From Lytechinus pictus (lineage: Eukaryota): a DNA stretch of 64,000 bases. Position 1 is the stretch's first letter. Every line of letters starts with the position of its first letter. This document shows, piece by piece, positions 2,621-51,486 of the stretch. The stretch is from NCBI RefSeq assembly GCF_037042905.1, contig NC_087250.1, positions 10,480,001 to 10,544,000 of the forward strand. Direction: 5' to 3'. Below the pieces are notes generated by a model. The model saw only the letters and a list, made by a program, of their open reading frames with translations. It was not told where the DNA came from and searched no databases. A program made the position numbers and the translations under genes.

Positions 2621-3153
2621 CCCAGATAGCAAAATATCTGGGCCCCATATGGGTCCAATGTGGGTTATCTGGGACCCATATGGCCCATATGGAAACCATA
2701 TGGGCTAGAGGTGGGTAGGTCCACATGGGGCCCATCTGGGTTATATCTGGGCCCACATGTACCAGATGAATATCATCTGGGCTGGAGATGGGCATTTTCA
2801 AGTGGGACCCAGATGGGCTAAAATATGTGGGACCCATCTGGGTTAAATCTGTGCCCATATGTACCAGATGAATATCATCTGGGCTGGAGATGGGCATTTT
2901 CAAGTGGGACCCAGATGGGCAAACATATATGGGACCCATCTGGGATGTATCTGGGCCCATATGTACCAGATGAATATCATCTGGGCTAGAGATGGGCATT
3001 TCCAAGTGGGACCCAGATGGGCAAACATATATGGGACCCATCTGGGATGTATCTGGGCCCATATGTACCAGATGAATATCATCTGGGCTAGAGATGGGCA
3101 TTTCCAAGTGGGACCCAGGTGGGCTAAAATATGTGGGGCCCATCTGGGTTATA
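2621..3153. mobile_element. Truncated MITE with an internal 102-bp tandem repeat (~4 copies)
   Basis: ATGTACCAGATGAATATCATCTGGGC recurs at 2757, 2859, 2961 and 3063. Only one terminus (CCCAGATAGCAAAA) is visible. Confidence 0.75.
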
Positions 3154-3365
3154 TTGAAGCAAAGCAACTATAATAACGCAAAGGTTCTTTCGAACATCTG
3201 GCGGCAGAGAATAGGGTCAGTGAGCTGAATATATTATGCTGCCTCGAGCATACGCAGGTGAGTGAAACTCCTTGCTCCGCTGAGTACCTTATGCCAAGAT
3301 AAACACTATTGTTTTCTCTAAATGAAAAAAAAAATAAAGATATTAGTAAACCAACTCAAACTCGC

Positions 3366-5193: not shown

Positions 5194-5841
5194 TATAATT
5201 TCAGCTCGAGCTTCGCGCATGTATAAGTTGTTCAGTGAGAGTATGTATTCTGTACATTAATTCCTACAAGCAACCCTTAAATGTATTAGTTTATCATAAT
5301 TATTTATAACAATAAAAAATGCCGTTCGCGCTTCGCTCGCACACTATTTGTTTTGTGACATTATTATCTTCGTTTCGATTCATCAACACAATACCCGCAG
5401 TCTATTTAATTATCATTTACCACGAGTACGTACCTCAGTTTCTCATAACTCAATTAATTTTCAAGGACCTATTCTTTGAAATAATTTACCGCATTCTATT
5501 AAAACATGCCGAACCCTCAATTCTTTCAAACATTATTATAAATTGCATCTTTTAAGTTTGTATTCTTAATTTGCTTGTATAACTACGCTGTATATTTTGA
5601 ATGTATGTGTTAATATATGTTTTCATTTATGTTATCTTTTTTTTATTTATTTATTGATTTTGTCTCATAGTTGTTGGGTCAACGCTCAATAAGGCTATCT
5701 GCTCTTTTTTGTTGGCCCCTCATTCTCATAAATATGTTTTTTGTATGTTGTCACAATGTTTTACTTATGTACCTTATGTATGTTTTTCATGTTTTTATTG
5801 AGAGTGTAAATAAATTGAATTGAAAAAAAAAAAACATGCTT

Positions 5842-8157: not shown

Positions 8158-8460
8158 TACCATCTTCATTACCGTCATCATCATCACCATCATCATCATC
8201 TTCGTCACCATTATCATCATCATCATCATCAGTGGCGGACCGTGACCCGAAGGAGACAAATGATTGGAGGGCACTGTATTCTTTGCGAACAATGCTGTGC
8301 CCCTCCAATGCTTTGTCTCCTCCGGGTCACGGTCCGCCACTGATCATCATCATCATCATCACCATATCATTATCATCATCATCTTCGTCACCATCGACCA
8401 CCAATAACAAAATTCATCATCATCATCATCATCACCATCATCATCGTCGTCATCGTCAAT
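8158..8460. repeat. (ATC)n microsatellite containing a 113-bp palindromic MITE (8230-8342)
   Basis: CAGTGGCGGACCGTGACCCG...CGGGTCACGGTCCGCCACTG is flanked by ATCATCAT on both sides. Confidence 0.85.
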
Positions 8461-10463: not shown

Positions 10464-11050
10464 TTAAAGGGATACTCCAGGCTGAAGATATTTCAATAAA
10501 TTGAGTAAAATTCACAAAGCAAAATGCTAAAAACAAATTGATCAAAATCGGATAACAAATAACAAAGTTATTGAATTTTAAAGATTTGTATTATTCCGGT
10601 GAAACAGTTCTAGGCATGTCTTCATGAATATTCAATGAGCAAACTGATGATGTCATATCCCCACTTGTTCTTTTGTATTTTATTATATATATGAAATTAG
10701 GATCATTCAAACATTTTCTACCAAGAACTAAACAATTGTAATGACAACTGATTAAATGCATTAGTTATTTATTGCTGTAAATTATTTCACTATAATGGAG
10801 ACACATCATTAACACATGTATGGAAAAAATGAAACTATTATTTCATGTAATAACATAAGAAAAGGGAAAGCGGGAAGTTACATCGTCAGACGCCCTAATG
10901 AATAATCATGATGACGTGCATATAACGGTTTTCACAACTTTTGCTAAACTTTAAATTTCAATAACTTCGTTATTTGTTATCTGATTTTGATGAAATTTTC
11001 AGCATTTTGCTCTGTGAATTTTACTCCATTAATTCAAATATAATTATCTT
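10464..11050. mobile_element. TTAA-flanked Kolobok-like MITE (same family as 21204-21751 and 58413-59018), right end decayed
   Basis: Starts TTAA-AGGGATACTCCAGGCTG and shares the internal block ATCAAAATCGGATAACAAATAACAAAGTTATTG with its inverted copy. Confidence 0.75.
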
Positions 11051-11229
11051 CTACTGATAGTCAACGCCCTCTCTTGGTAATATTTTTTACGTTTTAAAAA
11101 GGGGCTATCTCACAAGTAGATCAGTTGTAGGCCTACTTATGTAGCTTAATTTACACTAAGAAATGAGGTATCGCATATGGTATTGAAGTCTGGGTTGGGG
11201 CTTGATAGATTGATCTAGATTCCATACTA

Positions 11230-11650
11230 TAAATTAAAAAAATTGCAATGCGTGCGATAACAGTAATTTAGTACGTACATGATAAGGATCTTAAGATACT
11301 TGACATTTTCCAACTTTATAGATTATCTATCTGTTTAGCTTTATGTAAATATGATCTAATTAATAAAAAATTGCCACATTCGCTGCTACAATATTGTTCA
11401 CTAATTCAACATAGATATATAGTACAAGGCAAAAGGAAGATGAGAGCTTGGGAATCGAGTTATTATCTTAATGTAGGCACAACTTCTTGGAATGAGCTAC
11501 CAATCAAAATCAGAAAGAAACCATCAAGGTCAAGTTTTCATAAAGCTGTTGTTGAACATCTGTTGGAAAACTGAACTTTGTTATCATCTATATGGGATTT
11601 TTGTTATTTATATATCTTTCATATATGTAAATACTGTTAATTTTTATTAA
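11230..11650 (+). mobile_element. Decayed 3' end of a LINE
   Basis: ORF 11371-11574 ends GTTSWNELPIKIRKKPSRSSFHKAVVEHLL, the WNxLP...SF C-terminal signature of CR1/L2-type ORF2. Confidence 0.55.
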
Positions 11651-11824
11651 ATTGTTATGTAGGCATTATATTACAGAGTATATTTAGTAGACTTACGATT
11701 ATACATTCTTAAAGGACCCAGATTCCGCCATGGGGGGGGGGGGGCCCAATTTTATTTACCCATATTTTCCCCAATCGGCCGCTTAAAGTTAATTTTTTGT
11801 TTGTTGCTATGAAGGGGTTGGCGC

Positions 11825-13867
11825 AGTGGCGTAATGAAGCACAAATTTTGAGGGGGCTCGATTTGGCGTATTGCGCAAAATGATAAGAAGTTGCGAGCGA
11901 GCGAGCAAAAATTTTGAAATTTTTATTCAGTACAAAAATCCAAGTTTGTGAAAGATTTTGACATAACTTTTGGAAAATAATATCATATTTTTCACCCTTG
12001 TCCCTTTTCTTTTTTCTTTTTTTCTTGGTCGTGATTTTTTTTTCCGGGGGGAGGGGGGCAAAACGCCCATGTCCTAACAGTTACTTCTTAGCTTTATTCT
12101 TATAAAACAACATAAATGTATAATATTCTCATAAGCCCTATTTAAATAGTGCGAACGCGAAGCGCGAGCTAATTCTTTTTGGAATTTCATGTACTTTGTC
12201 CTGAAAAATAAACATTCTGGGCAATGTTTGTGAACCTGAATAATTACTGCGAGCGCGAAGAGCGAGCAGAAATTTTTAACATGCGTTCTGGCCTGATCGA
12301 AAAGGGACCTGTTAAGGACGTTTTTCAGTTAGTCATTAAGACGATACATATTTCAACGATTAAATTATGCGAGCGCGAACTGAACATTTTTAACATTCCG
12401 ACCTAAAAAATTGCCATTCTAAGCACTTATTGTAATCATTAACGGTATAGGTATATAACCAAACAATTGATGCGAGTGCGAAGCGCGAGCGGCAAAAATG
12501 AGATTTATGACCTAAAGACGGGACACTATATATATTTTGTAAATCATGAAAAAGGATGGGATTTGGTATCTTCCTACATTGATAATGCAAGCGCAGAGCG
12601 CGAGCAGAAAATGTTTGATATTTTTATCAGAAACTGGATAATTTTAGCACGTTTTGAATAAAGATCAAACTGCGTATTTAAATAAACATGCATGCGCGTG
12701 ATTTAGAGTTAGACAGAATCTGCATGGGCATTCTGAATACATTTTATTTTTTTAATCATGACTCGCGAAGCACGAGCTGAAAATATTTGATATTCCGGTA
12801 TGAAAAGGGTAAAATTTAAGCACTGTTTAAAGCACTGTGTAGGGAAATTGAAGTGAAGTGGATGTGGATAGCACACTTTATAAATGATGCGAGCGCGAAG
12901 CGCGAGCTTGTATTTTTATTATAATTTTGACCTAGGACCGGGACATTCTAGGCCTAAGAACGTTTTGTCATATAAAATGATGACTATCTCCCCATTCCTC
13001 TTCCTAAGCGCAATATGAAACTTGTCGATAATCCTTTCTGAAAATCCTCTCTGAAGAATTTAGTTATTGGGAAATCATGAAAATTTTATTATATTTATTA
13101 ATCTGATAAGCCTAATGATTGCATGAAATTGGTTAATGTTGAGGCCTGAAAACTGACTATTTTAAGCACTTTTGTAATGATGAATAGGATTCATGGGTCG
13201 ATATATTTTTAAGAAGTAATGAGAGCGCAAATCGCGAGCCGAAATTTTTGATACAATGTACACTGTTATAAAAGGTGGATTTTAAGTAGTTTGTTATAGA
13301 ATTAGTATAGAATAACTCACCAATCAAAATGCGAGCGCGCAGCGCTAGCTGATTGGCCTTTGTTTTTGACAATCACACCTGAAAAGGGATATTTTGATAA
13401 TCTTATGGAATACAAAAATACAATAGGTGGGCCTACTTGGAAAATCAAATAATGCGAGCGCACAGCGCAAGCATGAAATTGTTGATATTCACACCATAAA
13501 ACGGAATTTTACAGAGCACTTTGAAAAAAATTTGTAAATCAAAGCTCAATGTCCGAGGTGCAGTATGTTTTCTATATTGACTTCAAAACTTGATATTTTA
13601 AGCTTTATATCGACCCGTATTGAGCAAGATTTATATCTCACCGAACAGGCAATGCGAGCGCGAAGCGCGAGCGAAAATTCAATTATTAAAATTATTTTCC
13701 AAGTCTTCCCCTGACTGTATTTTATTCACTCGTCTCCCTCCTCTTTCCTCTTCTTTTTTTCTCCTTTCTTTCCCCTTTTTTTCTTTCTTTCCCCTTTTTT
13801 CATTTTTTTGCTCCTCCAATAGGGGGGGGGGGGGGAGGGGGCCCCTCTCCCCCTGGATCCGCCAATG
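11825..13867 (+). repeat. Element containing a diverged ~110-bp tandem array with conserved GCGAGCGCGAAGCGCGAGC cores
   Basis: Cores at 12151, 12249, 12369, 12472, 12587, 12760, 12889, 13221, 13331, 13454 and 13654. Ends are CAGTGGCG... and ...GGATCCGCCAATG. Confidence 0.7.
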
Positions 13868-14664
13868 TTAAACGAGAATGAAACCTTTGGAACAAGTGGG
13901 CTTGTGTGGAAAGAGAAAAATCAAAGGATAAGATCAAAGAAAATTTGAGAAAAATCGGACAAAATAATGAGAAATTTATGAGCATTTGAATATTGTGATC
14001 CTCCCATTCATTGGCATTGCGTCAGATATGTGTGATGTCACATGTGAACAACTTTCCCTTTGATGGAATATGAAATACCCCCAAAATGTCTCTTTTTGCT
14101 CTTTCTTATGGTGATACAAACTCTTTATCCGTGATATATTCTTTGAAAATCTATATTACAAGCCCTCCTTTAGAAAAAATTCATGATCTACTGATAGATG
14201 TGATAAAAGAGGCATTTTAAGTGAAATAAATACAAAAGCAATGGGAAAGTTGTTCACATTTGATATCACACATCCTTGTCGCATTGCCAATAGGATCTAC
14301 ATTACAAAAGTGATCTAAACACACAAGTTATATTGTTCCAAAGGTTTAATTTTCCTTTAACAACTTAATAAAAATGTGTTTTTATCTGCCTAAACTACAT
14401 GAACTACAAGGAGCTAGACTTGACTATCATTTATGCTATGTTCTGGTTCCTATTATCCTGGCTTTTTTATGTATTCATAACTGAATGGCTGTAAACTTGA
14501 AAAAATATTATTCATTATTATCATTATTTATGTTTTATGTCCTGCGCTTTTCACCAAATGTCCCAAAGCGCTTACATCTTCAAAAATGTCAAATCAAGTA
14601 TAAAATGAACTTTGCAATCTTAAGACTCTCGGACTGGAAAAAAGAAATGTATCAAGTCCCTTTG

Positions 14665-15242
14665 TCAAGGTCAAGTCCACCTAAGATTTTTTTTTTTTTG
14701 AATCAATAGAGAAAAAATCAGACAAGCGTAATGTTGAAAGTTCATAAAAATCAGATGAAAGGCAAAAGCGAAATTTTAAATGTCATAACTTTCTTATTTT
14801 TCATCTGATTTTTGATGCACAATTTAGTCACATGCAAATAGGAGAATCGATGACGTCCCTCACTCACTATTTTTTTTTAATTGTTGTCTGAATTATACAA
14901 TATTTCATTTTTACAGATTTTACAATAAGAACCAACTTGACTGAACCATCAACATGTTAAACAATGGTAATTTCCACATGTTCAGGGAGAAATAAAATTT
15001 GGTTTCATAGATTATTTCATATTTCCAATAAAAGAAACAGTGAGTGAGTGATGTCATCGATTCCCTCATTTGCATATTGACTGGGAAGTGCATATCGTAA
15101 CTTTTTTGTGAAATTAAGCGAAATTTAAATATGTCATAACTTTCTTATTTTACATCCGATTTCGATGAAATCGTCAGCGTAATTGTTAGTTTTTTCTCTT
15201 TTTATTCAAATCAATTTTTGTTGGGGTGGACTTGTCCCATAA
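14665..15242. mobile_element. Kolobok-like MITE (AAGGTCAAGTCCACC...GGTGGACTTGTCC family)
   Basis: Terminal inverted repeats; internal similarity to 17672-18279. Confidence 0.7.
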
Positions 15243-15479
15243 ATAAAAAGAGCGATGGTTACTATATCATATCACTGCATTGGATAATAAATAAATTTAT
15301 TCATTAATCAGAATACATAATGCGGGGGCGGATAACTGTTTAGTGAGATAACACAATCGAATGATTATGATCATAAAAGTTACCGATTTTAAAAACCTCT
15401 TTCGATCTAATCAATGTAATATGATGTTCGTCTGATGTTTAAGATATTTCTTTCCAAAATAATAGGACCCACTCGTATA

Positions 15480-15720
15480 ATAGCCCCCCCCCCCCTTCTT
15501 GACCGTCAGCTGAGCTCATTGGCATTGCATTGAGTGACAGTTGTGGAAACAAACAAAGCGAGTGCCACGCCCCCTCTTTCACCACGTGCATGCTTAACGC
15601 TTCTATAGCATATAATCGTTCGATGTTCTGCGCATGCGGTTTGGCACTCAGCTGATCGATGGTGCGTGTAAATGACAAGACCGTACCCGGACCCCACCAC
15701 GACAGAAGCTCGATAATTTT
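15480..15720 (+). promoter_or_regulatory. Candidate ELOVL promoter
   Basis: CpG-rich segment upstream of the CDS with inverted CCAAT (ATTGG ~15518), CCACGCCCC (Sp/KLF ~15564), CACGTG E-box (~15582) and TGCGCATGCG (NRF1-like ~15629). Confidence 0.5.
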
Positions 15721-16048
15721 ACCACTTATGTGCTGGTCGCTACATCGTCCGACTATTACATGGGCCATTATTCGTCGGGAGCCTTTTGTTCTTTATGAAT
15801 AAAATATCGGAATATTTTCCTCAAGATCAAACGTAAATCAGAGAGCTCTCAGTCGGCAGCCTCGCCTCGTGTCTCGTGAACCATTTCGACGAAAGTACTT
15901 CGACGTTAGAAAAGCCGGCTTAGCTTATTCGTGACATATCGTTCGATAGACGAGGCTCAAGTATAGCTGAGCTGTTTCCATTCTGCCTTATTTTTAGCAT
16001 CAGACTCCTTCATCAACCTATTTTGAACTGGAAAACTGAAACTACAAA

Positions 16049-16978
16049 ATGGCTTCGTGGTTAAGTGATCCCCTGGCAGCTTTGGAGAGCACGTTTGACG
16101 GTTCTTGGATCGACTGGTCGCTGTCTTCGTGGTATATCACTTTCATTTTCTCCGCCATTTATATCATGCTGATATACCCCCTACGAAAATGGATGGAACC
16201 ACAAGAGCCAAAGAAACTCCGTGGACCGCTGGTCGCTTGGAATCTAATTATAGGGATGTTCAGCATTATTGGGACGGCGAGGGTTCTCCCAGATTTCCTC
16301 AAGAACCTCCGCAATGATGGATTTTATGCTAGTTTTTGCGAGAGCAATTACTTTTTGAAAGACCATGTAGGCATTTGGGGGTTCCTGTTCATATTATCGA
16401 AGATCCCCGAGCTAATTGATACCCTATTTATCATCTTACGCAAGCAGAAATTGATATTTCTGCATTGGTATCACCACGCTAGCACCCTCATTTTCGCCTG
16501 GCGAATGTACGCCACACGCAGTTCAGTCGCTTATTGGTTTTGCACTATGAACTATTTCGTCCACAGCCTCATGTACAGCTACTACGCGATCCGCGCTGCG
16601 GGTTTTCGAGTGAACAGAAAAATTGCAATGGTTATAACTTCGCTACAACTTCTGCAAATGTTCGTAGGAATTTATGCTGTGTTGTACGCAGTGCACCAAA
16701 TAGCCAACGGCCACCGCTGCGATACGAAAACCCCAGAGCTGGTATTTGGAGTCGTCATTTACACAAGTTACATGATACTTTTCTCCAAGTTTTTCTACGA
16801 TGCATACATCGGGTCACGGCGTGTACGGCCATCGCGCGATAGCGTAGCAGACGGCAAAAAGGTCGCCGAGGTCAATGCCAATGGATCGAACCATGACGTC
16901 ATGAATGGAAAGGGAGATCACCTAATTTCAAATGGCAATGGACACATGCGGCTTAGAAGTACACAGACCCAACAATAA
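16049..16978 (+). CDS. ELOVL6: Very-long-chain fatty acid elongase, ELOVL6/3-like; CDS intronless, 309 aa
   Basis: ELO-family motifs SKIPELIDTLFIILRK, the histidine box FLHWYHH, MNYFVHSLMYSYY and ITSLQLLQM; multiple TM segments; good start context aaaATGG. Confidence 0.93.
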   Translation: MASWLSDPLAALESTFDGSWIDWSLSSWYITFIFSAIYIMLIYPLRKWMEPQEPKKLRGPLVAWNLIIGMFSIIGTARVLPDFLKNLRNDGFYASFCESNYFLKDHVGIWGFLFILSKIPELIDTLFIILRKQKLIFLHWYHHASTLIFAWRMYATRSSVAYWFCTMNYFVHSLMYSYYAIRAAGFRVNRKIAMVITSLQLLQMFVGIYAVLYAVHQIANGHRCDTKTPELVFGVVIYTSYMILFSKFFYDAYIGSRRVRPSRDSVADGKKVAEVNANGSNHDVMNGKGDHLISNGNGHMRLRSTQTQQ

Positions 16979-17671
16979 TGAAACTGAATGTTTATATTGT
17001 TAAAAGTATAAAATTATAGTTATTTAAGGTATCAAGTACATTAAACAAAAAACAAAAAATGCTGGATGTTTTTAGTTTAAAGCAGGAAAGAAAGATTAAT
17101 TGTGTCTTTGAATTCACCTTTTTTTTTGTGTTGGCCTTGTTTATTTTTGCTTGTTGATTCTTGGTCACAAAGGTTTAATGTTGAATCAATTCTAACTATT
17201 TACTACAGGTCTGTAAGACTTGAAAAGGAGAATAAAAATCCCAATTCGGCCCACTCAAAAGTCGTATTTCATGTGGATTTAAAAAATTGATATAATTGCA
17301 CTTGTAACTTTGTCTTACATTTTTGCAAAGAATCAATGAGTGGTTGACTACCAAATTTCAAAATATCTTGAACAATATTTATTTCAGCTGCATGCTTGCA
17401 CAAAGGTCTGGAAAATATTTTGATATTTAATAACACGCCAAGCCTCAATTCTCAAACATGTCAATTCCTATTTTTGCAAAATGGAACTTCGTTTTTGAGT
17501 TGCGTTTGTATTTTGAAAGCTAGAGCTAGAGTTGTCCTGAAAACTTGTGATTGTCAATGACAATATGTATTTACTAAGTGATGTGTGTGCAGTACACTGT
17601 AACTGCTGATTCCTTTCAAAGCGCACAATCTCTCTCACATAGGCCTACAACTTTTTTGGGGCAAATGCTGT

Positions 17672-18279
17672 TTAAAGGTCAAGTCTGCCAAAGAAACATT
17701 TCGATTTGAATAAATAGAGAAAAATCAAATTAGCATAACGCTGAAAATTTCATCAAAATTTGATGTAAAATAAGAAAGTTATGACATTTTAAAGTTTCGC
17801 TTTAATATTTTTCACAAAACAGTGATATGCACAACTCAGTGACATGCAAATGACACAGTTGATGATGTCCCTCACTATTTCTTTTGTTTTTATTGTTTGA
17901 ATTTTACAATATTTCATTTTTTACAGATTTGACAATAAATGAAACTTGCCTGAACCATATAGTATTAAACAATGCTAATTCAACATGTTCAGGGTAGAAT
18001 CATTGTTTCACTTGACAATGAGGAGAAAATTTGAATATTTCATATTTCAAATGATAAAATTCAAAAGAAAGTGGATGACGTCATAAAGTCTTCTCATTTG
18101 CATACCGACCAGGATGTGCATGTTATAGTGTTATGTGAAGTGAAATTAAGCGAAACTTTAAAATGTCATAACTTTCTTATTTTACGTCTGATTTGGATGA
18201 AATTTTCAGTGTTATGCTTGTTGGATTTTTATCTTTTTATTCAAGACAACTTTTTGTTTGGGATGGCCTTGTCCTTTAA
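17672..18279. mobile_element. TTAA-flanked Kolobok-like MITE in the probable ELOVL 3' UTR
   Basis: TTAA-AGGTCAAG...CTTGTCCT-TTAA with internal inverted blocks. Confidence 0.8.
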
Positions 18280-20851: not shown

Positions 20852-21203
20852 AGCCCCCCTCCCTATGCCAGAATGAGGGAACATGAAGAAAAAAATGGGT
20901 TCCTGTTGGCCTACATAAGGACATACATTTTCATTCGAAGAAGTAAAAGAAAACCACTGGAGGTCGCGAGAAAGACTAAAAAATATTACGCCCCTCCCCA
21001 ACTTTGATCCAAGGTTGTGTCTTTAAAAAAAGGTGCACTTTTGAAAAAAAAACAAAAAACAAACATTATAAGGGAAGGAGTTATGGGAAACTCGTAGACT
21101 AGCCTTGTCCAATATTGTAAAGAATGTATTGAAACTAGATTGCTCATCATCTATTATAATAGGCTTTCATGTTTCTGAGAGGAAAGTCATTAACTTTGAT
21201 TTA

Positions 21204-21751
21204 AGGGATGGTCCGGGCTGAAAATATTGATAGTTATATAAATAGAGTAGAATTCACTGAGCAAATTGCCGAAAATTTCATCAAAATCGGATAACAAATA
21301 ACAAAGTTATTGAATTTTAAAGTTTAGCAATATTTTGTGAAAACAGTCGTCATTAATATTATTTTGTATTTTATCATATTAAAATATAGGTTTATTCAAT
21401 TTTTTTCCTCCAGGAACTAGAAAAATTGGATTGACAACTGATTTAGTGCATTAGATATTTATTGCTGCAACTTATTTCATTATAAGGGAGACATTTATTC
21501 ACGCAAGTATATATGAAATAATGAAAAATTATATGATTTTATGTAACGTAAGAAAATGGAAAGTGGGGATGTGACATCATCATCCCACCTAATGAATATT
21601 CATGACGACTGTTTTCACAAAATATTGCCAAACTTTAAATTTCAATAACTTTATTATTTGTTATCCGATTTTGATGAAATTTTCGGCATGTTGCCCAGTG
21701 AATTCTACGCTATATATCAAGATACACATATTTTTAGCCCAGACCATCCCT
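21204..21751. mobile_element. Kolobok-like MITE with TTAA TSD
   Basis: AGGGATGGTCCGGGCTGAAAA...TTTTAGCCCAGACCATCCCT-TTAA. Confidence 0.8.
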
Positions 21752-22225
21752 TTAAAGCTTACGGGGTTGATGATGATATGAACGAGTAATAATGTATTTA
21801 TGTTTGGCCTTGCTGAGTAAAATCTACTGGTTGTGGGATAGTAATATTGCATCAGTAAACAGGAGTTGCTGTACATAGCAATATAAATTTCCTGGTAGAC
21901 TCAGTGGTAATGAGAGTATTATTAATATAAAAGTAAATGAAGTTATATGTATAAAAGTGAGCAGTGCTCGCCTTACATGCAAAGTTTTCGAACTTTTGCG
22001 GTGTCTTCTAGAAAATATGCTATCCATACTGATAGGCCTATACATAATAAAGCATTTCCCAAGCATTATCTGTTATTAAGAAGTCATTCAAAAGTATGTG
22101 TAGCACTGGCGGATCCAGGGGGGGGGGGGGGCACAACCGGGCCGTGCCCCCCCTTTGAGAGCCACAATCAAATTTACAATGTAAATAATATACCGCTTTT
22201 ACCCAAGTGTGCCCCCCCCCCCTTT

Positions 22226-22257
<32 letters not shown>

Positions 22258-23454
22258 GCTTGTCAAATTTTAATCGGAAAAATGTGCCTTCCCTTTTAGA
22301 AAATCCTGGATCTACCCCTGATTAGTAGCACCCCATTTAGGGCACTGTTGTACGGATGAGGCGGGAAGGGGGCAGGTTCAAACGAGTCACGACAAAGGGG
22401 GAAAAATGATAACGAAAATGAAAGAGAGAAAAAAAAAACAGACAGAACTTGAAAGAAAGAATATGGTGACATATGATATAATTTAATATTGGAATGTTAT
22501 GACAAAAATCTATGACAAAATTTGATTGACAAATGATTTTACAGTGTCAACATATTCGCGCGCTTGCAAATTTTTTTAGGAATCCTCCCTATGCCATGTT
22601 GTACCTTTCAACATTTTTGGAAATTACGCCTCTGATTTAAAGCATCAAAACTGAAATATTTTTTCATCCGTTACAAACAAACACGTAGCATGTTTGTTTT
22701 GTTTCCTTCCATTTGTTAATTTCACCACTCAACAATATAAACATGGCCATACGCAGATTTTCCCTGCCAAGGGGGGGGGGGTGTAAGATGCGGAAAACTT
22801 TTTTGAAGAAACTCGAAAGCAAGGGAGCAAAGCTTTTCATGAGGACGCTTTTGTATTTTCTAATTTATAAGTGAAATTGATTAAGGAATTGTGCACTTAT
22901 TTTTGTGACTTAAAAAAATGTCAGCTTTAAACATTTCTGGGGGTCAACTAGCCCTCCCCCCTGCTGCATACGGCCATGAGAATAAATAATGGTTAAAAAA
23001 AGTCACGCCAGCATTAGATGATCACTAACTTGTATAAAAGGTCAATGCGTCCGATAAAAATAGCACCATATGATTATAGTCGAGCCATATGTATGTCTGG
23101 ATCTGACCATATCTCAGAGAACAAGCTGAAAGGACAAGTCCACCCCAACAAAAAGTTGGCATGAATGTAAAAAGAGAAAAATCAAACAAGCATAACACAG
23201 TGGCGTAACAGGCGGGGGGGGGGGGGGGAGCAGGGGGGCACTGCTGCCCCCCTGGCGGAGTTCACCGGATAAATGGGGGAAAAAACGGGAAAAAGAAAAA
23301 AGAATGGGAGAAAGAAAGAAAGGGAAGGGAAAAGGTGAGAAAAAAGAGGAAAGGGGAAAGGAAAGGGAAAGGGGAAAAGGAAAGGGAAAGGGGAAAAGGA
23401 AAGGGAAAAGAACACTAAGAAAAAATATAAAAAGGGAAAACGGGGAAAAGTAGT

Positions 23455-23665
23455 GAGGCGCGATAGCTCAGTCGGTAGAGAGGGTGTTTCGGATTCCGGT
23501 GACCCGGGTTCGATTCCCAAGTGGTGCGCTACCCGGGTGCGCTAGTGCCCTTTGGTAAGGCATTTATCCTCATTACCAGGTCCCTCGGAGAGGACATTAA
23601 GCCGTTGGTCCCCTGGTTGCTTGCTCACAGGCATTCGTGCTTTCTTAGCAGTCAGGTAAAACAAC
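23455..23665 (+). mobile_element. tRNA-derived SINE (copies at 29821-30025 and a partial copy at ~60350-60520)
   Basis: A box TAGCTCAGTCGG and B box GGTTCGATTCC, followed by the non-tRNA body GTGCCCTTTGGTAAGGCATT shared by all three copies. Confidence 0.85.
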
Positions 23666-23751
23666 CTCGGTATAACAAAAGGAAAGAAAGAAGAACATGT
23701 GAGAAAGAACAATTCTCCCCGATATACTCCCCGAGTTTTGTGACACCCCTG

Positions 23752-24619: not shown

Positions 24620-24840
24620 CTGGAGATTGTGGCTCAGTGGTAGAGCGCCTGCCTCTTGAACAGAAGATCCTGGGTTTGCTCCCAGGCTGAATCATATACC
24701 AAAGACTTTTAAAGTGGGACCTTCTGCCTTCTTCTCAGGTACTTGACATTTTCAAATGGAGAAGTGTAATAATAACATTATGTTATGCAGGGCCCACTGG
24801 GAGAATAAGTGCTGAAGTTGCTTCCCTGGCTGAGTAAAAA
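24620..24840 (+). mobile_element. tRNA-derived SINE, second family
   Basis: A box TGGCTCAGTGG, a degenerate B box, and the core CATATACCAAAGACTTTTAAAG. Confidence 0.65.
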
Positions 24841-29820: not shown

Positions 29821-30025
29821 GGAGGCGCGATAGCTCAGTTGGTAGAGCGGGGGATTCTTATTCTGGTGACCCGGGTTCGATTCACACTTGGTGCGCTAGT
29901 GCCCTTTGGTAAGGCATTAATCCTCATTACCAGGTCCTTCGGAATGGACCTTAAGACGTCGGTCCTCTAATTGCTTGCTTACAAGCATTCATGCTTTCTT
30001 AGCAATCAGGTAACAAATCCCCACC
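29821..30025 (+). mobile_element. tRNA-derived SINE
   Basis: High similarity to 23455-23665; A and B boxes present. Confidence 0.85.
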
Positions 30026-30693
30026 AATCAATCAATTGTTCATAACTTAATACAAATGACTTCATGCAGGATTGGTGAACAATTGTTCTGCTAAATCTAC
30101 CATTCATGTTCATGTGTGACCTAATGAACACCTTTTTGCTATTTTAAGTCTGAAAAGAGTTTTCTATTAATTCCAGTAGAGAACACTCTCAGTGAAAGAG
30201 GTACACTAATTACTTACAGAACTCTAAAATCAAGATTTACAAGAAATTTCAAATACTGAAATCCTTTGATTAGCAAAGGGGTCTTTTTAGGATATTCTTC
30301 AACGAGAATCATGTCAAATCTTGTTAATCTCTCCCCTTCAAAAAGAAGATTTTTTTTTAGTTGCACCAGATAAAGAAATAATCAACTGCTACAAAGCGAG
30401 TTAATAAAAAATTCCAATTGTCTTCTTTTGCTGAAAATTAGGATTTGGCAGAGAAAAAAAGCAAAAGATCCATTTGTTTAGAACAAAGGATATCACATCA
30501 TCGCATAGCTTCTACATTAACTGTAAGTGTTCTAACTCAAGTGGAGAACTCTCTGAGCTAAAAAGGAGCACTACTCCTGCAACTCTAATATTAAGATTTA
30601 CATGTACAAGTACTTCCAAAGAACGAAAAATCTCTTGAATAGTGTAGGAGTCGCTTTAGGATATTCTTCAGTGAGAATTAGATCAAGATCCGG

Positions 30694-35888: not shown

Positions 35889-38800
35889 CTATAGAAACAC
35901 AAAACAGAAAAGACAAATCGTGTCATAGATGTATCATAGTGATTCTGATTCTTGCCTTGTAATTAGTGCTGGCCGATATTTGATCTTAATGTTAGTCGAT
36001 TATCGCCAGCAAAATATTGCCGATAACACGATATATCGCTTAGTCTGAATTTCATAATACGTGTATATTATTCAGTTTCATTGTGAACTCTAGGATTTCA
36101 TGAGAGCAAGGAATGGAGAAAAAGAAAGTAAGGCTTCCATCAGTACTTGTCCATAAAGAGCGGGCATTTGGGTAACAACTTATGAAGTTCTGATTTGGTT
36201 TAAAGCAATATAGAGCAGTATTTTGTGGATGTGCCGTGGTGTAGCGGTTCTGACTCTCGCCTTGTAATCAGAGGGTCGTGTGTTCGAATCCCACCATGGC
36301 CTAGCGCCCTTTGGCAAGGCGTCAATCCACTCTTTGCCACTCTCACCCAGGTGCTAATTGGGTACCGGTAGGAAACAACCGTCATTGTGGTTGGTTTAGC
36401 AAGTTTGCGCCTAACAGGCTGCTTGGAATGCTATGAATCCAGTGACCGGGTAATAATAATTGTGAAGCGCTTTGAACAGTCGTAGATTGATAAAGCACTA
36501 TATAAATGCCAATTATTATTATTATTATTTTGGTTAATAAAAGTGATCAACTTTTCATCATAAAAAATATTTTGGTCAAATTGTGTTCATGCAATATAAG
36601 AACATAATCATAAGCATCCTTGCACAATCTCTGCAAGCCATTTGTGAGCCATGAGAAAACAGGATTCTCAGATTTTCAAGAAAACAAAATTCCCTGATTT
36701 TTCCCCGATGAAGTTTAAAAATTCCCCAATAATTATTAGAACCCCTTCCCAGTTGCGCATGTTTTCTAAGTTGTTGCACTGAATTACTTGTGTTTTCAGT
36801 ACAAAACCAATAATGTAAAACTATTAAGTACCACCATAACCAGTTATTCAATGGATGTTGTTATAATATGCAACAAAATATAACAGAGTCTGCCTGACTA
36901 CCATGCTTTTGACCTTTTGGCTGGTCAAAATTCCCTGATTTTTCCCTCATTTGAGGTATTAAAAAATAATCAAATTTCCTGATTTTCCCTAACTGGAAAA
37001 AAGTAAAATAATTTTACTTGATTTCCCTGATGGGCTGGGAACCCTGGAAAGCCAGGCTTTAGCCCAACTTGACAAACAGTTTCTGAGGTGCTGTATAAAA
37101 GTGGATTATTACCACAACAACTATTGGCTTACTCACTTGTACTTTTGTTCTCTCCTGTTTCCTCTGACCAACGCCCATCGCGTTGATGAGCTCGTCTTCG
37201 AGCCAAAGGTCCTCGTCGTCCGAGAAGTCGTAGAGGTGGATACCAACGTTATCTTGATCACCCGGTTCACCGAGCCTGTTGGGGTTGGGTTTCCCGGGCC
37301 TCCATTCGTCGATGATCTCCTCTTCCGTATCACTGCCATCATCACTGTAGAGACAGGAAAGAAGATATGGGTCGGTATTTTGTTATAACACACATCAGTG
37401 AGGGCGTTGGTAAAAATTAATCCCCATAAGCTACATGTACCTTCTGGACATGGACATACCATGAATGATACAGCGAATGGTATATCAACTGTTTCAAAAG
37501 TACCTCCAAGTACTATACAATGATGTCTTTGCTTCATTAAAAATACCCACTACTCATCACTGCAATCAGTACTGTAAGGACTGGAACAGAAGGGCTGGTA
37601 TTTCATTATAATACACAGCAGTGAGGGCGTTAGTGAAAATTATCCACACAGGGTTCATGTACCTTCTGAACAGGCTGAGTGTGTTTTAACTGTTTCAAAG
37701 GTACCAAGTACTGGGAAATTAAACTGATAAGAAGTCAACAAATCATTGTCATCATCACTGTAGCAATTGAATGATGGTGAAAAGAGAAGGGCTAGTATTT
37801 CATTATAATACACATCAGTGAGGGCGTTAGTGAAAATTATCCACACAGGGTTCATGTACCTTCGGAACAGGCTGAGTGTGTTTTAACTGTTTCAAAGGTA
37901 CCAAGTACTGAGAAATTATACTGATAAGAAGTCAACAAATCATCGTCATCATCACTGTAGCAATTGAATGATGGTGAAAAGAGAAGGGCTGGTATTTCAT
38001 TATAATACACAGCAGGGAGGGCGTTAGTGAAAATTATCCACACAGGGTTCATGTACCTTCGGAACAGGCTGAGTGTGTCTTAACTGTTTCAAAGGTACCA
38101 AGTACTGAGAAATTATACTGATAATTGGTCAACAAATCATCGTCATCATCACTGTAGCAATTGAATGATGGTGAAAAGAGAAGGGCTGGTATTTCATTAT
38201 AATACACATCAGTGAGGGCGTTAGTGAAAATTATCCACACAGGGTTCATGTACCTTCGGAACAGGCTGAGTGTGTCTTAACTGTTTCAAAGGTACTAAGT
38301 ACTGAGAAATTATACTGATAATTGGGTCAACAAATCATCGTCATCATCACTGTAGCAATTGAATGATGGTGAAAAGAGAAGGGCTGGTATTTCATTATAA
38401 TACACATCAGTGAGGGCGTTAGTGAAAATTATCCACACAGGGTTCATGTACCTTCGGAACAGGCTGAGTGTGTCTTAACTGTTTCAAAGGTACCAAGTAC
38501 TGGGAAATTAAACTGATAAGAAGTCATCAAATCATTTTCATCACTGTATCAATTGAATGATGGTGAAAAGAGAAGGGCTGGTATTTCATTTTAACACACA
38601 TCAGTAAGGGCGTAAGTAAAATTATCAACACAAGCTACCTTCAAGACATTTCTAACCCAACCAAGATATAACTGACAGTATTTGGAGTGTTTCAAAGGTA
38701 CCCAGTCTAAGTATTTATACTAATGCTCGATCAACAGTCTCCTCTTCTGTATCAGATTCGAGTCTATTAATAATAGAAAAAATGGGGAAGGCTGATATAT

Positions 38801-41800
38801 CATAGAACACATCAGTAAGTGCACTATTAAGTTTTCCCACTAATTTCTGATCCATCTAAGATATGACTGAAAGTATTTGAACTGTTTCAAATGTACGTAA
38901 TGTAGCCTGGTCATGTTAATGGTTCATTAAAAATATCCTCTTATCATTGTATTGACAGTAAGATGCACGTAAAGGAAACAAGAAGGGCTGAAGAAAGAAA
39001 GAAAGAAAGACAGGAAGAGACAGAGAGAGAAAGATAGAATGAAAAATATGAATCTCACCTATCTGCTTGGTAATCTCTAGGAAACATTATACCGCACCCC
39101 ATGATGTCTCCTTTGTGGCATTTAGGTCCAAAAGGGTTTCCTACTCCGTGGCCGGTGAAGATCTTACCATCGTCTAAGGAAACAAGAGTAAAAAGTCACT
39201 TTACAAGGGTATCGATTCTGACCCAGTCCCACATATACATATTCATGTCAGTAGTCTTTAAATGTAGTTAGATGATTACCTAAAACAGCACTGCAGACAT
39301 ATGAAAAGAAAGAAAGCAAGAGAGGAAGGAAGAGAGGAACGGAAGAACGATGGCCTGTGAAGATTTAACTATCATCTAATGACAAGATTAAGGAAAGAGC
39401 ATGTAAAGAGACCCTTCAAAAGGGTTTAAATTTTTACCCAGTCTCACATATTGATGTCAGTAGTCTGAAAATATCCATTCACTCAAGCATGAGATGTGTT
39501 CACTGGACCAAAATTTTAAGAAAACGTCCATTTTGATGAAAAGTGTTTAGGGTTAGGGTTAGAGGATCTGCATTCGCAAAGGTCCAGTAAATTGGCGACA
39601 ATAAACTACATCAAAGACACAATATGCATGCACATGAAGCTCACATCAAAGTTAGATCGTAACCAACATAGTGTACATGTGCATGCTTTGCAACATGCAT
39701 GATACCTTATGGCGTGCTTCGTTTGTAGGGACAGTGATTTTCCGTTTTACCGGTAAATAAAACGGAAATTCCGTTTGGTTCTTACACTTTCATGTAAAAA
39801 TTCATGGAATTCACCTTTGCAAAACGGAATTCAGGTTTTCGCTGTGTACATTTTCAGTGACAAAACGGAATTTCCATTTTTACATCAAGTTGAAACGGAA
39901 TTACAGATTTTCAGAAATGGAAAAGATCATTTTTTGAAACGAAAATCACTGTCTCTACGTTTGACCCACGTAGACCAATCGAAAATAACATGTTCGGACA
40001 GGTTTGTGCAATATACTATAGCCTTATTTCCCTTATTTTTTTCTCTCCCTCTGGAGCTTTTCACGGCCCACCCGTTGATAAGTGCTGATTTAGAGAGTAC
40101 CTTCCCTGGCGACTTCTTGCTGGTTCTGGTGTGGCTGGTCATGTAAAAAAACTTTTATTTCGAGTTAGACCTTACCTGCATGGTAAGCGATTGACCCTCG
40201 ATCCCAACCAGGATGCATATTGGTGGGGTAGTCCTTCCGGGTCACGCCGAGGGCGACATAGCAACTCCTTCCCGGGTCAATGATCTCCAGCTCGAAGTAG
40301 TGGTTTGCCGGGCCGAGCCGTTTCCGGCCCTGAGCCATCCCAAACTCTGAGAAGTCCTCCCCCTTTCCTGTGTACGTCACGATCTGTAGCCAATAAAAAA
40401 GGAAAAACCAAACAATCATGGTGGTAACCAATAATACAGGAACCACCTGTTTTCTCTTGAATAGCACTTCCTATTGAAATATGTTTTCCATCCACTTATG
40501 TTGTAAAATAGCCTTAAAAACAAACATTCTTAAGCATGTCGACATGCACCCATCAGAGTAAAATTGCATGAATGAACAGAACGCTAGAACGAAAAAGAGA
40601 ACCGAAAGAGGCAATGGACGCTATTTTATGATTTTGCAGTACCAAACATTTATTTATCCATTTACATGTATGTATTAATTGCTAGAATCTGTTTATTTAT
40701 TTATTTATTTTTTCTCTTAAATTACTTTTAGCAACAAATTAAAAAGACAAGTGTGCTATATAAATATCATGTATGTAAGTATGTATTATTATTATCAGAA
40801 CAGGATTATGTCCATGAAGACTAACTGCTTATCAAGACCACACTTCTCATCTACGTCGGGCAATCTTTATAAACAAGTTACATTAATACAACCTTGATCA
40901 CAATACCATATAATTCACCCAAAGTCAGTCTACACTCCAAGGTCTACTTAAAAAAATCCTTACTGATTGTTTTTTTTTTTGTATAACAACCAGTTTGTCT
41001 TCTTGCTATTTGATTAATTGAATGACCTTTGACCTTAACCACAAATGATCTTTGACCCTGACCAGATCATTTAAACACGATGGTTTAAATTAAACTCTGG
41101 TTTAAAGTTGTGGTTTACCTATGGATAGCCAATAGTGGCATAAATCTCTAACAGTAGAATTTCAATAAATCAGCTCATTTTTCTCTAAAATCATTCTTAA
41201 CTTTTTCGCAAGAATAAATAAGATAGCTTTCTTCACCATTCACCAGTTAAGAAAGAGCACAGTAAACGTAAGAAATATACAAAGTAAGGAAAATTTTGAC
41301 ATTTTTGGCTCTCCATAATTTTAGCACAGAGTTAGACCATGGTTTAAGTTAAACCTGACTTTAGAATAAGGGCCAATTACTTTAGACCTTTATCAGAGTA
41401 TAACACTAAATGATCTGTAAAACATACCTGTATATTGTCACATTGGTGGCCTTCTACAAAATCTGTTCTTTGATGACATCACACTATGCCCCAAATGACC
41501 CTTGATCTTAACCAGATCCTTTAAACCTCAGATGACCTTTGACCCTTACCTGTCCATTAACCGATGCATGGTTGACCCTTCTCCACATCTGTTCTTCCAT
41601 GACATCATCTATCAGCATATCCTCCTCCTGGTATGACCATCTACTGAGGCCGAGGTACTTGACGTGTTGCTCTCGGCCTCCCAGACTGAATGCTGGGTAA
41701 AATGGCTTCAAGGGGTCAAGGGTTATCTCCTCTTGTAGGATCTTAACCAAAAACAAGAAAATATCAGCATACATCATAATTAAAATTATATGAATTTTTG

Positions 41801-44800
41801 GGCAATTATTTAATCTATATCCTTTATATGCAGTAATATAGGATAGCTAAATAAAAATATTTTTCTTATAGGAGGGGGATGAACTGATATATCCGAGACG
41901 CAATTAAATCACTAAATATCTGTTGTCTATAAGGTCAGCCACTATGACTGATCAACCTAGACATAAAACGTTTCCTTGGTAATTGGTTATATACCAGCTT
42001 GACTTTTACCAGCAAAATGCTGTCCTTCCGAGTTCCTACGGGAGTTACCATAAACAAAAACAGAAACTTTCATTATTTTGAGAAAATTGCATTTCAATTT
42101 TTTTTTATATTACATGGCATGTGGAGGAGCTGCTCGTCTTCGACGTCACAAAATGAAAACTTTAAAATTTTACGACTCTATAAAATTCCTTGATGGATTT
42201 TCATCAAACCTTTGCCAATATTTTTCTAGTCTTTTCTGCTTTTAATCAAACCAACTTATGGTCAGAGTGAACATTCCCTTTAATTGAATTGAATCAAGCT
42301 TTCTCGTGCCACGTCGTAGCGCCCTCTTACCCTTTTCCCATTGACCACAACAGAGAGTGGGCAGATGAACGTGCTAGCATCCTCCCCCGAGCATTCCGCT
42401 CGCTCGAAGTGAAGCGCAATTCCAACTTTGTCAAAGTTCTGGGCTGGTGTGCAGACTAGCGTATCTGGTCTGCCAAAGTACCTGTATGAACAAATAAAAA
42501 ATATTTAAAGGAAGGGCCCATATGAAAAGAGTCCTGGACATACATACCTACTTAATATGGCATTGCCCAATTAGCATTAGGCATATTGTTATATTGTTTT
42601 GTTGCGGTTTCAAATTTCGCGCGAAACGTGTCACACCACTGAGAGTGTTTCCATAGCAACAAGAGCGCTTTCAATTTCAATTTCAATTTCAATTCAATTT
42701 CAATTTCAATTTCAATTTCATTTATTTCACATCTCTCATAAAAACATTCAAATGACAAATACAATATAAAACATATTCATACAAATATACACAATAGAAA
42801 CAAAGAAAAAAAATACACGATAAATCAATTGTAAAAAAGTGGACAGATAGGGAGTGAATAACATTACTAACATAACATCACTTTACGTGAAGTGATTTAG
42901 AAAAATAAAATGTTATGTCAAGTCAACTGCCCTCATCCAAACCACCATAAAATGCGAAAAACAGTGTCATGAAGAATATACAGATGCAATGTCTTTGGGG
43001 GAAAAAATGCAAGATTTGGTGAAGAATTGCTCAAATTTGTATTCAATGAAAAAGCACTTTCGTATGCGATTTGACTGCAAAAAAAAAAATCATCCCATCT
43101 CTTTTATATACAGCGCAGCAGCGATATAAAAAGGGAAAACAAAATCGACTGACTGACCCAACTTTCTGACCTAGGGCTTATGAGGGCAGCAAAACAATAT
43201 TTTAGGTTTAAGGAATTGACCTAGAACTTCTGAGACAAATATCGGGGGCTAAACTTCACAACCTACAGGTGTACTACCAAGAAGCATAAACATAACATCA
43301 CAGTGAATGGGAATTTTCTGTTGCCCTTTTTAAAATTCCAGGGCTGTTTTGAGCATTTTTTTGGAGGCAAAATCGCCCCGATCACCCCAGTAAGTTTTTC
43401 CCTCAGACCCTGGAACCTACTCTTTTGCCATCGTAGACGCTATACCGTACGGACGTCTTTGTTGATAATCAGCTAGAACTTACCCTTTGCCATCGTAGAC
43501 GCTGTACCCTACGGAGGTCTTTGTCGATCCTAGATGAGCATCTGTAGGGTGTGTCTGCATTGCCAGACCAACACGGATATCCTCGCTCCCTACTCCTTGC
43601 CCTTTGATCTCCACCTACAAGGATTATTAAAAGAGGAAACAATAATAACTGGATTTATCAACATATACAGATGACAGTGTTGAGACACAAAACAAGTTAT
43701 GATTTATCACGTACATTGTAACATATTTTCAAGATAAAGCTATTAAAGATCTTGACGCAAGATTTCAATGTATTTCTATTGTTTTTTTCTTCTTCATATT
43801 TTTCCATTTTCACAATTTTTTTTGCTTCAGTTTTTTTCATTAATCAGTATTAATAACAAATCAGTCTTTAGACACTGAAGAGAAGGTAAATAAATCGCTT
43901 GTAAGAGCACTCTTAAAATTTGTTTTTCTCCATTCACTTTGTACACAAATCTCCCCATTGACATTGTGTGTAAATGCCCCATACGTAACATGTTGTCCCA
44001 TACGTAACAATTTTTAAATCAACTTTTAATGAAAAAGTCTCTCTTGGCTTGCTTCGCGAACGAAGATTTATAAAGGCAGTCCACGTCTACTGCAGGCACG
44101 CATGTGACTCACAAGGCCAATACGTGATAGACAGACACGGCCACAGCGGCCGCAGTCAAAAGTCACGTTTGGTGTGGCTGCTGAGGCTTCGCGATTCTTT
44201 CTGCGGCGACGTTTCTCCCTCAGGTGATCTTTTCGGGATTCCTCGAAAGAAGAGGCAGCCTGATGGACTATATGTCGCCAGCTAGCACGGTCAGCAGCCA
44301 GAGTAGACCACTGGCAATGATCGATATGGCATGTACCGAGGGACTTCTTCAGGATGTCCTTGAAGCGTTTCTTTGGAGCCCCTCTGTCACGATTGCCAGT
44401 AGAAAGTTCGCCGTACAGGGCTATCTTGGGCAGGCGATGGTCTTCCATTCTTGAGATGTGTCCTGCCCAACGGAGCTGAGTCTTCAGCAGCATGGCCTCG
44501 ATACTGGGGATCTCCGCCTGTTCAAGGACCTCAACATTTGTGACATAGTCGGTCCAGTGAATGTTGAGGATGATCCGGAGACAGCGCTGATGGAAACGCT
44601 CCAGGAGTCGCATGTGGTGGCGGTAAGTTACCCACGACTCAGAACCGTACAGTAGGGTGGTGAGGACAACAGCTCTGTATACGCTGATCTTGGTGCCCCT
44701 TTTCAGATGCTTATTTCTCCAGACCCGCTTGTACAGTCTGCCGAAGGCACTGTTAGCTTTGGCCAGTCTGTTGTCTACTTCCCTGTCAATCTTGGCGTCT

Positions 44801-50139: not shown

Positions 50140-51486
50140 CATCCCAGAAGGAAAAACCAGTAAGACCAGTAAGAATTTTTACTGGTTTCCAGTAGAATTT
50201 TACTGGTTTCCAGTATATTTTTACTGGGCCAGTTGATTTTTAACTGGACCAGTAAAAATCAACTGGAGACCAGTTCAAACAATTGCATTCCAGTTAAAGC
50301 AAAGTAGTTACACCAGTTAAATTGTTTTTCATCAAACTTGTGTTACTGGTCCAATAAATGGTTTCCAGTAGATTTTTACTGGTTTCCAGTATATGTTTAC
50401 TGGACCAGTTGATTTTTAACTGGACCAGTAAAAATCAACTGGAGACCAGTTTAAACAATTGCATTCCAGTTGAAGCAAAGTAGTAATACCAGTTAAATTG
50501 TTTTTCATCAAACTGGTGTTACTGGTCCAATAAATAATGACTTTATTTCAAGTCAGATCATTTGACGAATTGTGGAAAATGAATCTTGCAATTCAGAGAA
50601 AGTTATTATCGTTATCATTGTTATCATCATTCTTCTTATAATTATCATAATTATTATTATTTAATTTATTATGATCATTGTTGTTATCATTCTTATTACT
50701 GTTATCATTGTTTATATCGATATTGTAATTATTATTATTAATATTATCATAATTATCAAGTATTAACATTATCATTAAAATAATTATTTCCTTTAATTAT
50801 GATAAAGATCAAAGCAAGATATATTCCTCTGATATAGTCAACTGGTCTAAAGTAATTCATTGTTGAAATTGAACTGGTCAAGACCAGTAATACCAGTAAT
50901 TCTGATGATGCTGATCACGTGGTTTACCTCATTTGCATATTTCCTATTTTTAAAAGAAAAATCAGGATTTAGATTAGGAATATCCTTGCAATGGCACTCA
51001 TTGTTGTTTAAAAACTTTCCAAATAAGTGTGTGAACTAATTCACAATGGAAATGTGTAATTTCATATATCACATTAAAAATAACAGCAGAAAGATTAATT
51101 TACTAACCATCTTTTCCATCACATTTCACTGGCCATGGTATATAACAAACCAAATGAAAGTAATAAATTGATCCAGTAAGACCAGTACGAGGACCAGTTT
51201 GACCAGTTCGAGGACCAGTTCGACCAGTTCGAAGACCAGTAGAAAATACCAGTAAAAGACCAGTATGATCGAAGACCAGTGAGACCAGTAACAAGCACCA
51301 GAAACAAAACCAGTATAAAATTCCAGTAATTCAAGACCAGTTTAATTTTTAACTGGACCAGTAAAGTTTTAACTGGACCAGTATGACCAGTTAGACTAGT
51401 AAACCGATGTTCCAATTTCCAGAGTTACCAGTTAAAATTCTACTGGTCTAACTGGTCCAGTGGAACTGGTTTTTCCTTCTGGGATG
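50140..51486. mobile_element. 1.35-kb non-autonomous DNA transposon with TA TSD and many ACCAGT/ACTGGT subterminal repeats
   Basis: TA-CATCCCAGAAGGAAAAACCAGT...ACTGGTTTTTCCTTCTGGGATG-TA. Confidence 0.88.

Follow-up and report, generated by a model that had tools for sequence, protein, structure and literature searches.

The tandem array of hairpin-forming cores in the window (the whole 64-kb stretch of DNA analyzed here) most likely represents the interior of a single aged copy of a DNA transposon family, abundant, non-autonomous and moving by cut-and-paste, with TIRs and an 8-bp TSD of the Pegasus/hAT-like type, a reading to which we assign a probability of roughly three in four. The evidence carrying it comes from five directions, namely the LINEs, SINE-like repeats and MITEs of this animal window, a sequencing depth far above that of a neighboring gene combined with considerable divergence among pieces of the same species, a right end resembling the TIRs of silkworm MITEs with 8-bp TSD, the presence of the same core near TIR-type ends at independent loci, and a core divergence in line with that found between copies. 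The initial annotation had considered an undescribed mobile element as one option, and membership in a mobile element is supported.

Aligning the units and searching with a profile derived from them resolved about 15 units of approximately 110 bp each on the plus strand (12151-13700), every unit pairing a core position with an AT-rich spacer that hosts GAAATTTT-, CCTGAAAA- and TTTAAGCAC-like blocks; the region is high-copy in three contig sets. The 19-mer core was matched nine times at up to three mismatches, always on the plus strand, compared with no match in 100 shuffles. Two of these cores are perfect (12889-12907 and, in the final unit, 13654-13672), three are near-intact with 18/19 positions (12151-12169, 12249-12267, and 12472-12490), and one carries 17/19 with a GCA loop, both of its changes being compatible with the fold (13331-13349). 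Three more retain 16/19, two of them without the GNA loop (12587-12605 and 13454-13472), the other at 13221-13239, where contigs from the sequencing runs identified the family letter at 13222 as the consensus core letter. The best ungapped core match per unit, in order from 1 to 15, was 18, 18, 12, 18, 16, 8, 13, 19, 9, 6, 16, 17, 16, 6, and 19 of 19, the core being partly or wholly lost in six of the 15 units with the spacer retained in several of them. At 12369-12380 the 3' arm is deleted, as seen in the unit alignment and profile, leaving just the 5' 11 nt (12/19 ungapped), the short degenerate unit at 12690-12759 keeps 8/19 at the core position according to profile and ungapped match, and at 12760-12777 a one-base deletion plus substitutions reduce the ungapped match to 13/19. 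The initial annotation had listed cores of one orientation at all of these positions, which stands for the nine matches but not for these three. Its period of mostly 100-125 bp needs a similar adjustment: the units do repeat, but their spacing varies from 70 to 129 bp, strict periodicity is absent, and the 332- and 200-bp gaps contain three extra coreless units, two within 12998-13220 (near 12998 and 13105; 9/19 and 6/19) and one at 13560-13653 (6/19), detected by profile and ungapped match and, for the former two, also by alignment. As these three units possess a spacer without a core, cores do not always outlast spacers. The array is absent from the Tandem Repeats Finder output for the 64-kb window. 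The inverted cores described earlier near 5205 and 5325 were recovered by motif scan and profile as a two-unit fragment of the same repeat on the minus strand (5204-5342), interrupted by another inverted-repeat element, its cores (5204-5222 and 5324-5342) having four mismatches each and lying 120 bp apart. Sigma-70 promoter-like matches (14 vs. 7.5 expected) were rejected as a product of the repeated unit motif and are irrelevant in an animal genome.

Judged from its sequence, the array appears to sit within a gene-less element of ~2.15 kb whose right end is a terminal repeat of the 8-bp-TSD (Pegasus/hAT-like) type. The last core is followed by a pyrimidine tract and then by the terminus, which reads CATTGGCGGATCCAG on the minus strand (13853-13867) and ends at 13867. 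A probable damaged left end with approximate boundary lies at 11704-11760 (plus strand), where a GGACCCAG remnant (11714-11721) precedes a G run; it is suggested by a depth rise in the bin 11644-11854 and by a weak match, with gaps, to the right end when inverted. At this copy, the left TIR survives as a remnant with no defined boundary, and a search for a TSD gave none. Behind it, a terminus-type motif at 11824, recognized by direct reading, opens a probable non-autonomous element with CAGTGGCGTA (11824-12071, plus strand), apparently nested, the ends of which match each other loosely. This region hosts the (GAGC)3 tract (11893-11906, plus strand) that the initial annotation had compared with the AAV Rep-binding element. 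An AAV-type Rep origin has its Rep-binding tract inside a T-shaped terminal repeat and is linked to a Rep gene, and around 11893 no long inverted repeat was detected. The tract is 18/20 identical to the core end and downstream motif at 12260-12279 and has the AAAWTTTT motif after it, just as the cores do, so that it may most simply be read as a loop-less variant of the hairpin core rather than as an AAV Rep site.

Within the element, no ORF of at least 100 aa from a start codon was found, and two overlapping stop-to-stop frames gave no Pfam match. Across the window, Pfam scans of 12 ORFs and 67 of 94 stop-to-stop frames (excluding low-complexity and previously scanned ones) matched only reverse transcriptase (RT), endonuclease, ELO, and SPRY besides two spurious hits; transposase, Rep/HUH, tyrosine recombinase, and Cas families were not among them. 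A linked autonomous ORF (HUH/Rep, tyrosine recombinase, or transposase), as envisaged by the initial annotation, hence did not emerge from these 79 ORF scans, and its AAV/HUH link is not supported.

Four of 23 listed sequencing runs were mapped onto 10800-17100 with a likeness cut-off of 80%, which hides remoter copies. Summed contig depth, compared as medians of eight array bins and four bins of an adjacent ELOVL gene, amounted to 119x (run X1), 749x (X12), and 1,628x (X14), a depth that denotes many copies and not a copy number. The ELOVL stretch of X1 differs in one letter out of ~1,250, a near-identity that assigns this run to the species of the window, and X12 and X14 deviate by ~3% over the same stretch. 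Array pieces of X1 (five, with two to three units each) differ in 188 of 1,301 letters (14.5%), with cores making up just 16% of the length; pieces of X12 differ by 9.6% (three pieces) and those of X14 by 13% (four pieces, one nested-element piece excluded), all taken from the 24 pieces listed out of ~112,000. Depth and same-species divergence together argue for the transposon reading. Other copies align across the spacers at ~85-90%, and 18 of 19 near-unanimous in-array differences lie outside the 11 recognizable cores (among the 40 rows listed of 656). Being matched in other copies, the spacers are family sequence and not acquired spacers. Joints among the 15 listed of 2,012 skip 223, 262, 451, 461, and 477 bp, i.e., two to four units, indicating that unit number or order varies between copies. 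The array belongs to a high-copy interspersed family.

The window is animal DNA of echinoderm-like character, has a GC content in the 36% range and is rich in microsatellites, inverted-repeat elements, and LINE fragments. The best named relatives of an intact single-ORF ELOVL6-like elongase of 309 aa (16049-16978, plus strand) come from a sea star and a crinoid, and its expression was low in the one RNA run mapped. A LINE on the minus strand (44068-47360) has two overlapping frames for endonuclease and reverse transcriptase, with an additional RT fragment at 534-1256. A SINE-like repeat whose head resembles a tRNA is present in three copies (23501-23676, 29855-30030, and 60350-60525), and a weak Rfam tRNA match at 24623-24694 was not called by ARAGORN. 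Young tandem arrays at 37588-38632, 2725-3154, and 50183-50535 have units of 197, 102, and 176 bp at 93-95% identity. Very high-copy foldback/MITE families with long TIRs occupy 10535-11051, 14010-14291, 15108-15237, 17706-18244, 21200-21755, and 58470-59025, their depth being far above that of the hairpin array where mapped. A 113-bp element in an ATC microsatellite (8230-8342) has a 14/14 terminal repeat of the same type as the right end of the array element and 8/8 matching flanks, and an element with the same end type at ~22104-22320 shows 8-bp flanks matching 6/8 by eye, resembling a decayed TSD. Finally, a minus-strand frame at 40168-40470 with a partial SPRY match under the curated cut-off is possibly an exon.

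An exact scan of metagenome contigs for the 19-mer returned 32 loci. Seven of them are AT-rich and carry the core inside or just inside TIR-type ends: five have one end in common, located 35 bp ahead of the core, a sixth has a different end, and the remaining one, L020, is an independent complete element of 391 bp. L020 has a TIR matching at 14/14 positions and contains two cores, of which one has a GGA loop, together with downstream motifs resembling those of the window; its flanks match at 3/8 positions for an 8-bp TSD. In the six loci besides L020, the core lies at most ~80 bp from such an end. Judged by composition and element type, the hosts of these AT-rich loci are probably animals. This recurrence of the core near TIR-type ends in L020 and the six further loci supports the transposon reading; adjacency in the window and L020, rather than full-length copies, suggest that right TIR and array travel together. 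At four other loci (L011, L028, L032, and L033; two with the same context) the identical 19-mer caps a long stem between end motifs of attC type. About 10 of the 32 loci are GC-rich repeats of prokaryote type (L002-L004, L013, L017, L024-L027, and L031), dispersed and with the core followed by a second hairpin.

Our class assignment builds on silkworm MITEs, the Pegasus-like families of which are presumably hAT-related. Table 1 of PMC2997013 lists four such families, BmMITE-13 to -16, with 8-bp TSD, and by hand count the right end of the window element is identical to the BmMITE-13 TIR at 13 of 15 positions, this resemblance being a further support of the transposon reading. PMC4763223 gives 8-bp TSD and subterminal repeats as features of hAT elements; PMC3442997 yielded no passage on Pegasus. 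Besides TIR type, the window element shares with BmMITE-13 to -16, as tabulated, the lack of coding capacity and the high copy number. In contrast, it is ~2.15 kb instead of 263-431 bp long, contains a long internal tandem array of hairpin cores, and has neither a TSD nor a left TIR demonstrable in this copy.

The rival explanation surviving best regards the units as a rolling-circle non-autonomous element (Helentron/HINE or Helitron), the hairpin serving as 3' end signal, the tandem arrangement arising by read-through, and the TIR-type ends stemming from neighboring or enclosing elements. A single-strand hairpin would fit an HUH enzyme, the missing TSD at this copy is in keeping with such an origin, and HINEs with 3' stem-loops and internal tandem repeats are present in sea urchins according to PMC4067079, where HINE/DINE-1 non-autonomous Helentrons are invertebrate, high-copy, gene-less elements with stem-loops and central repeats, as is the element of the window. 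However, the region 11500-14100 shows no subterminal inverted repeats, microsatellite block, T-rich ends, or TT insertion context, an arrangement that old copies can lose; the hairpin recurs in the units instead of standing once at the 3' end, the cores are not succeeded by a CTRR end, and the seven metagenome loci with TIR-type ends do not suit this origin, which we consider improbable.

The tandem-array MITE-type element is a known kind. DTC84 of Donax trunculus (PMC3879986) and Tetris of Drosophila virilis (PMC4079207) resemble the window element in having an internal array whose unit number varies, distinct unit types, and in each unit a conserved palindrome with an AAATT-like motif behind it. 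DTC84 differs by its microsatellite block, its AA target, and a palindrome that is perfect over 12 nt (PMC3879986), whereas the units of the window are far more diverged and have as their palindrome a hairpin with GNA loop and tandem GA mismatches. The single palindrome of each DTC84 unit marks the turnover point, units being duplicated and deleted (PMC3879986). Such hotspots of turnover in MITE arrays also speak for a dispersed minisatellite spreading on its own by slippage, conversion, or extrachromosomal circles, with cores alike by template switching and without a role in transposition, as do the variation of unit number and order between copies and the deletions removing a core or one arm. 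Yet TIR-type ends adjoin the array both here and in L020, and local turnover alone hardly accounts for one and the same 19-mer turning up in otherwise unrelated elements, making this explanation quite improbable. The initial annotation had itself named an ordinary MITE-type repeat with no structural constraint as the outcome speaking against its proposal; the first half of this has largely come true, but an absence of structural constraint has not been demonstrated.

Among ten aligned units the cores are 82.5% alike and the flanking blocks 38-50%, compared with 29% by chance, and core identity between units amounts to 83-85%. When aligned leniently, the initial 60 bases of the spacers reached 64.1% (59.4 ± 0.9 in shuffles), the remaining spacer showing no excess (60.6% vs. 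60.7). In a weak spacer-anchored search, the 14 other units scored 13-33 with a best outside score of 23, eight of the 14 being at, above, or loosely near this value. The earlier statement of surviving cores and decaying spacers is therefore valid for the comparison between units, but not for the coreless units with a spacer. Since spacers diverge far more between units than between copies, the cores of the ancestral element would have stayed near-identical while its spacers drifted. This points to constraint, or homogenization, acting on the element, and the cores appear to have been preserved during the active period of the family.

The nine intact cores carry 14 substitutions in 171 bases (8%), a value biased low by the selection of intact cores. 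Starting from identical ancestral cores, this divergence predicts a pairwise identity of 85%, as observed, and it approximates the per-copy value implied by the copy-to-copy divergence of 14.5%, an agreement that adds to the case for a transposon. Classified by hand, six of the 14 changes break a pair, three remove the loop G, three affect the free loop base, one forms a G-T wobble, and one converts A.G to A-T, nine thus damaging the fold. The share of the free loop base is slightly above expectation, and these three changes may be tolerated ancestral variation instead of decay. Pair counts of 14 animal-type cores revealed no covariation beyond shuffles (159/500 and 91/500 shuffles as high). 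CpG-type changes account for six of the 14, with p = 0.024 under a uniform model only and 0.14-0.36 with transition bias. With mostly fold-damaging changes, core loss in six units, and absent covariation, the cores of the window copy now appear to decay like neutral DNA.

The same observations weigh against an array used by the host under present-day selection, as a protein-binding or RNA element such as an enhancer acting on ELOVL, which lies 2.2 kb downstream; the CpG-rich cores, still 85% alike, and the proximity of this gene might suggest such a use. In addition, one RNA run (not a small-RNA library) yielded few array reads from both strands (1.65:1), mostly continuing into other sequence, and no position over the array where many molecules start or stop. 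This alternative is very improbable, and the selection proposed earlier is not supported for the present array. Readings of the array as a CRISPR-like system of repeats and spacers or as a Rep origin like that of AAV agree in outline only (conserved repeats that are short, variable spacers that are longer, and a single (GAGC)3 tract) and have a negligible probability, as the array spacers of 50-110 bp are homologous to one another and common to many copies instead of being unique and of even length, the genome is that of an animal, no Cas, Rep, or HUH family occurred in the 79 ORF scans, and an Rfam search of the window gave no match over the array, in accordance with the earlier remark that nothing shows CRISPR function and contrary to the repeat-spacer system offered alongside it.

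The minimum-energy fold predicted for the core by ViennaRNA comprises two pairs, a 2x2 GA/GA loop, four pairs, and a GAA loop, confirming the geometry drawn in the initial annotation. Its strand specificity is less clear-cut: with DNA parameters, the model gives the same fold for both strands (-5.0 vs. -4.7 kcal/mol, z about 0), so that the asymmetry rests on published GCGAAGC experiments (PMC13037366). This review describes the stability and nuclease resistance of GCGNAGC mini-hairpins, a stability beyond current folding models, and their occurrence in the phage G4 origin, ssiA, and N4 promoters. The core contains GCGAAGC as well, but lies in an animal double-stranded DNA transposon-type element; the searched text of the review does not contain the term “transpos”.

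The hairpin design does not occur at random in nature, and the core arms return with GNA loops in contigs of phages and at attC-like sites. In a viral scan with fixed arms and free loop, GNA loops were found in 61 of 109 distinct contexts vs. five with TNC (among the matches listed, related phages being non-independent) and in 49 of 55 contexts with flanks below 55% GC (likewise among the matches listed). In AT-rich phage contexts (viral contigs within L041-L150), a GTA loop sits on the same arms in 36 of 55 among the listed matches, apparently a recurrent non-coding phage signal. In GTDB genomes, the same arms carry GNA in 15 and TNC in six of 121 cases, mostly in GC-rich chance context and with little bias; three loci of Peregrinibacteria and Peribacteria (L295, L338, and L339) have ACG/ATG loops on these arms, two of them 78 bp apart. 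The tandem GA/GA internal loop is not convincingly enriched (5/120 vs. seven for the Watson-Crick alternative), and a tally of 17/125 was discarded as inflated by pooled loci from a scan in which GA/GA was fixed. Viral scans for an animal-type context gave nothing, or two chance matches in coding sequence. Selection on single-stranded DNA structure while the family was mobile is possible, with indirect support from the phage loop bias of the same hairpin.

Within the preferred reading of a non-autonomous cut-and-paste transposon, a transposase from elsewhere in the genome would have moved the gene-less element in trans. Slippage or unequal exchange at the hairpin would have added and removed units, spacers would have drifted between the units of the ancestral element with cores nearly unchanged, and after insertion the window copy would decay neutrally. 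A role of the cores as single-stranded DNA hairpins is plausible, and a folded single-strand signal in replication or gap repair of the element is our tentative favorite for their retention, at slightly below even odds. Double-stranded protein sites resembling hAT subterminal repeats are a rather doubtful alternative, and hairpin-driven homogenization without function is somewhat more doubtful still. A more far-reaching and, in our view, unlikely idea is that a widespread group of animal TIR elements with 8-bp-TSD-type ends depends on an ultrastable single-stranded DNA hairpin with GNA loop and tandem sheared GA pairs, a design also carried by phages and integron attC sites, these elements being copied with an unrecognized single-strand step, the signal having been multiplied into an array here. 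If true, this step would be hairpin-cued priming, fork stalling, or the action of an HUH-type or other non-DDE helper.

Our literature search found no paper that describes the array family, reports GNA mini-hairpins from TIR elements of animals, or shows cut-and-paste-type elements using a folded single-strand signal, its scope lying outside subscription journals, supplements, Repbase, and Dfam, and the latter two may list the family. In Strongylocentrotus purpuratus, 78.5% of repeats are unclassified (PMC8615465), and the array family adds another unclassified family where most repeats are of this status. The array shows how transposon interiors seed dispersed satellites. Should GNA/tandem-GA hairpins prove structure-conserved across animal TIR elements, this would mean that cut-and-paste-type elements use a folded single-strand signal.
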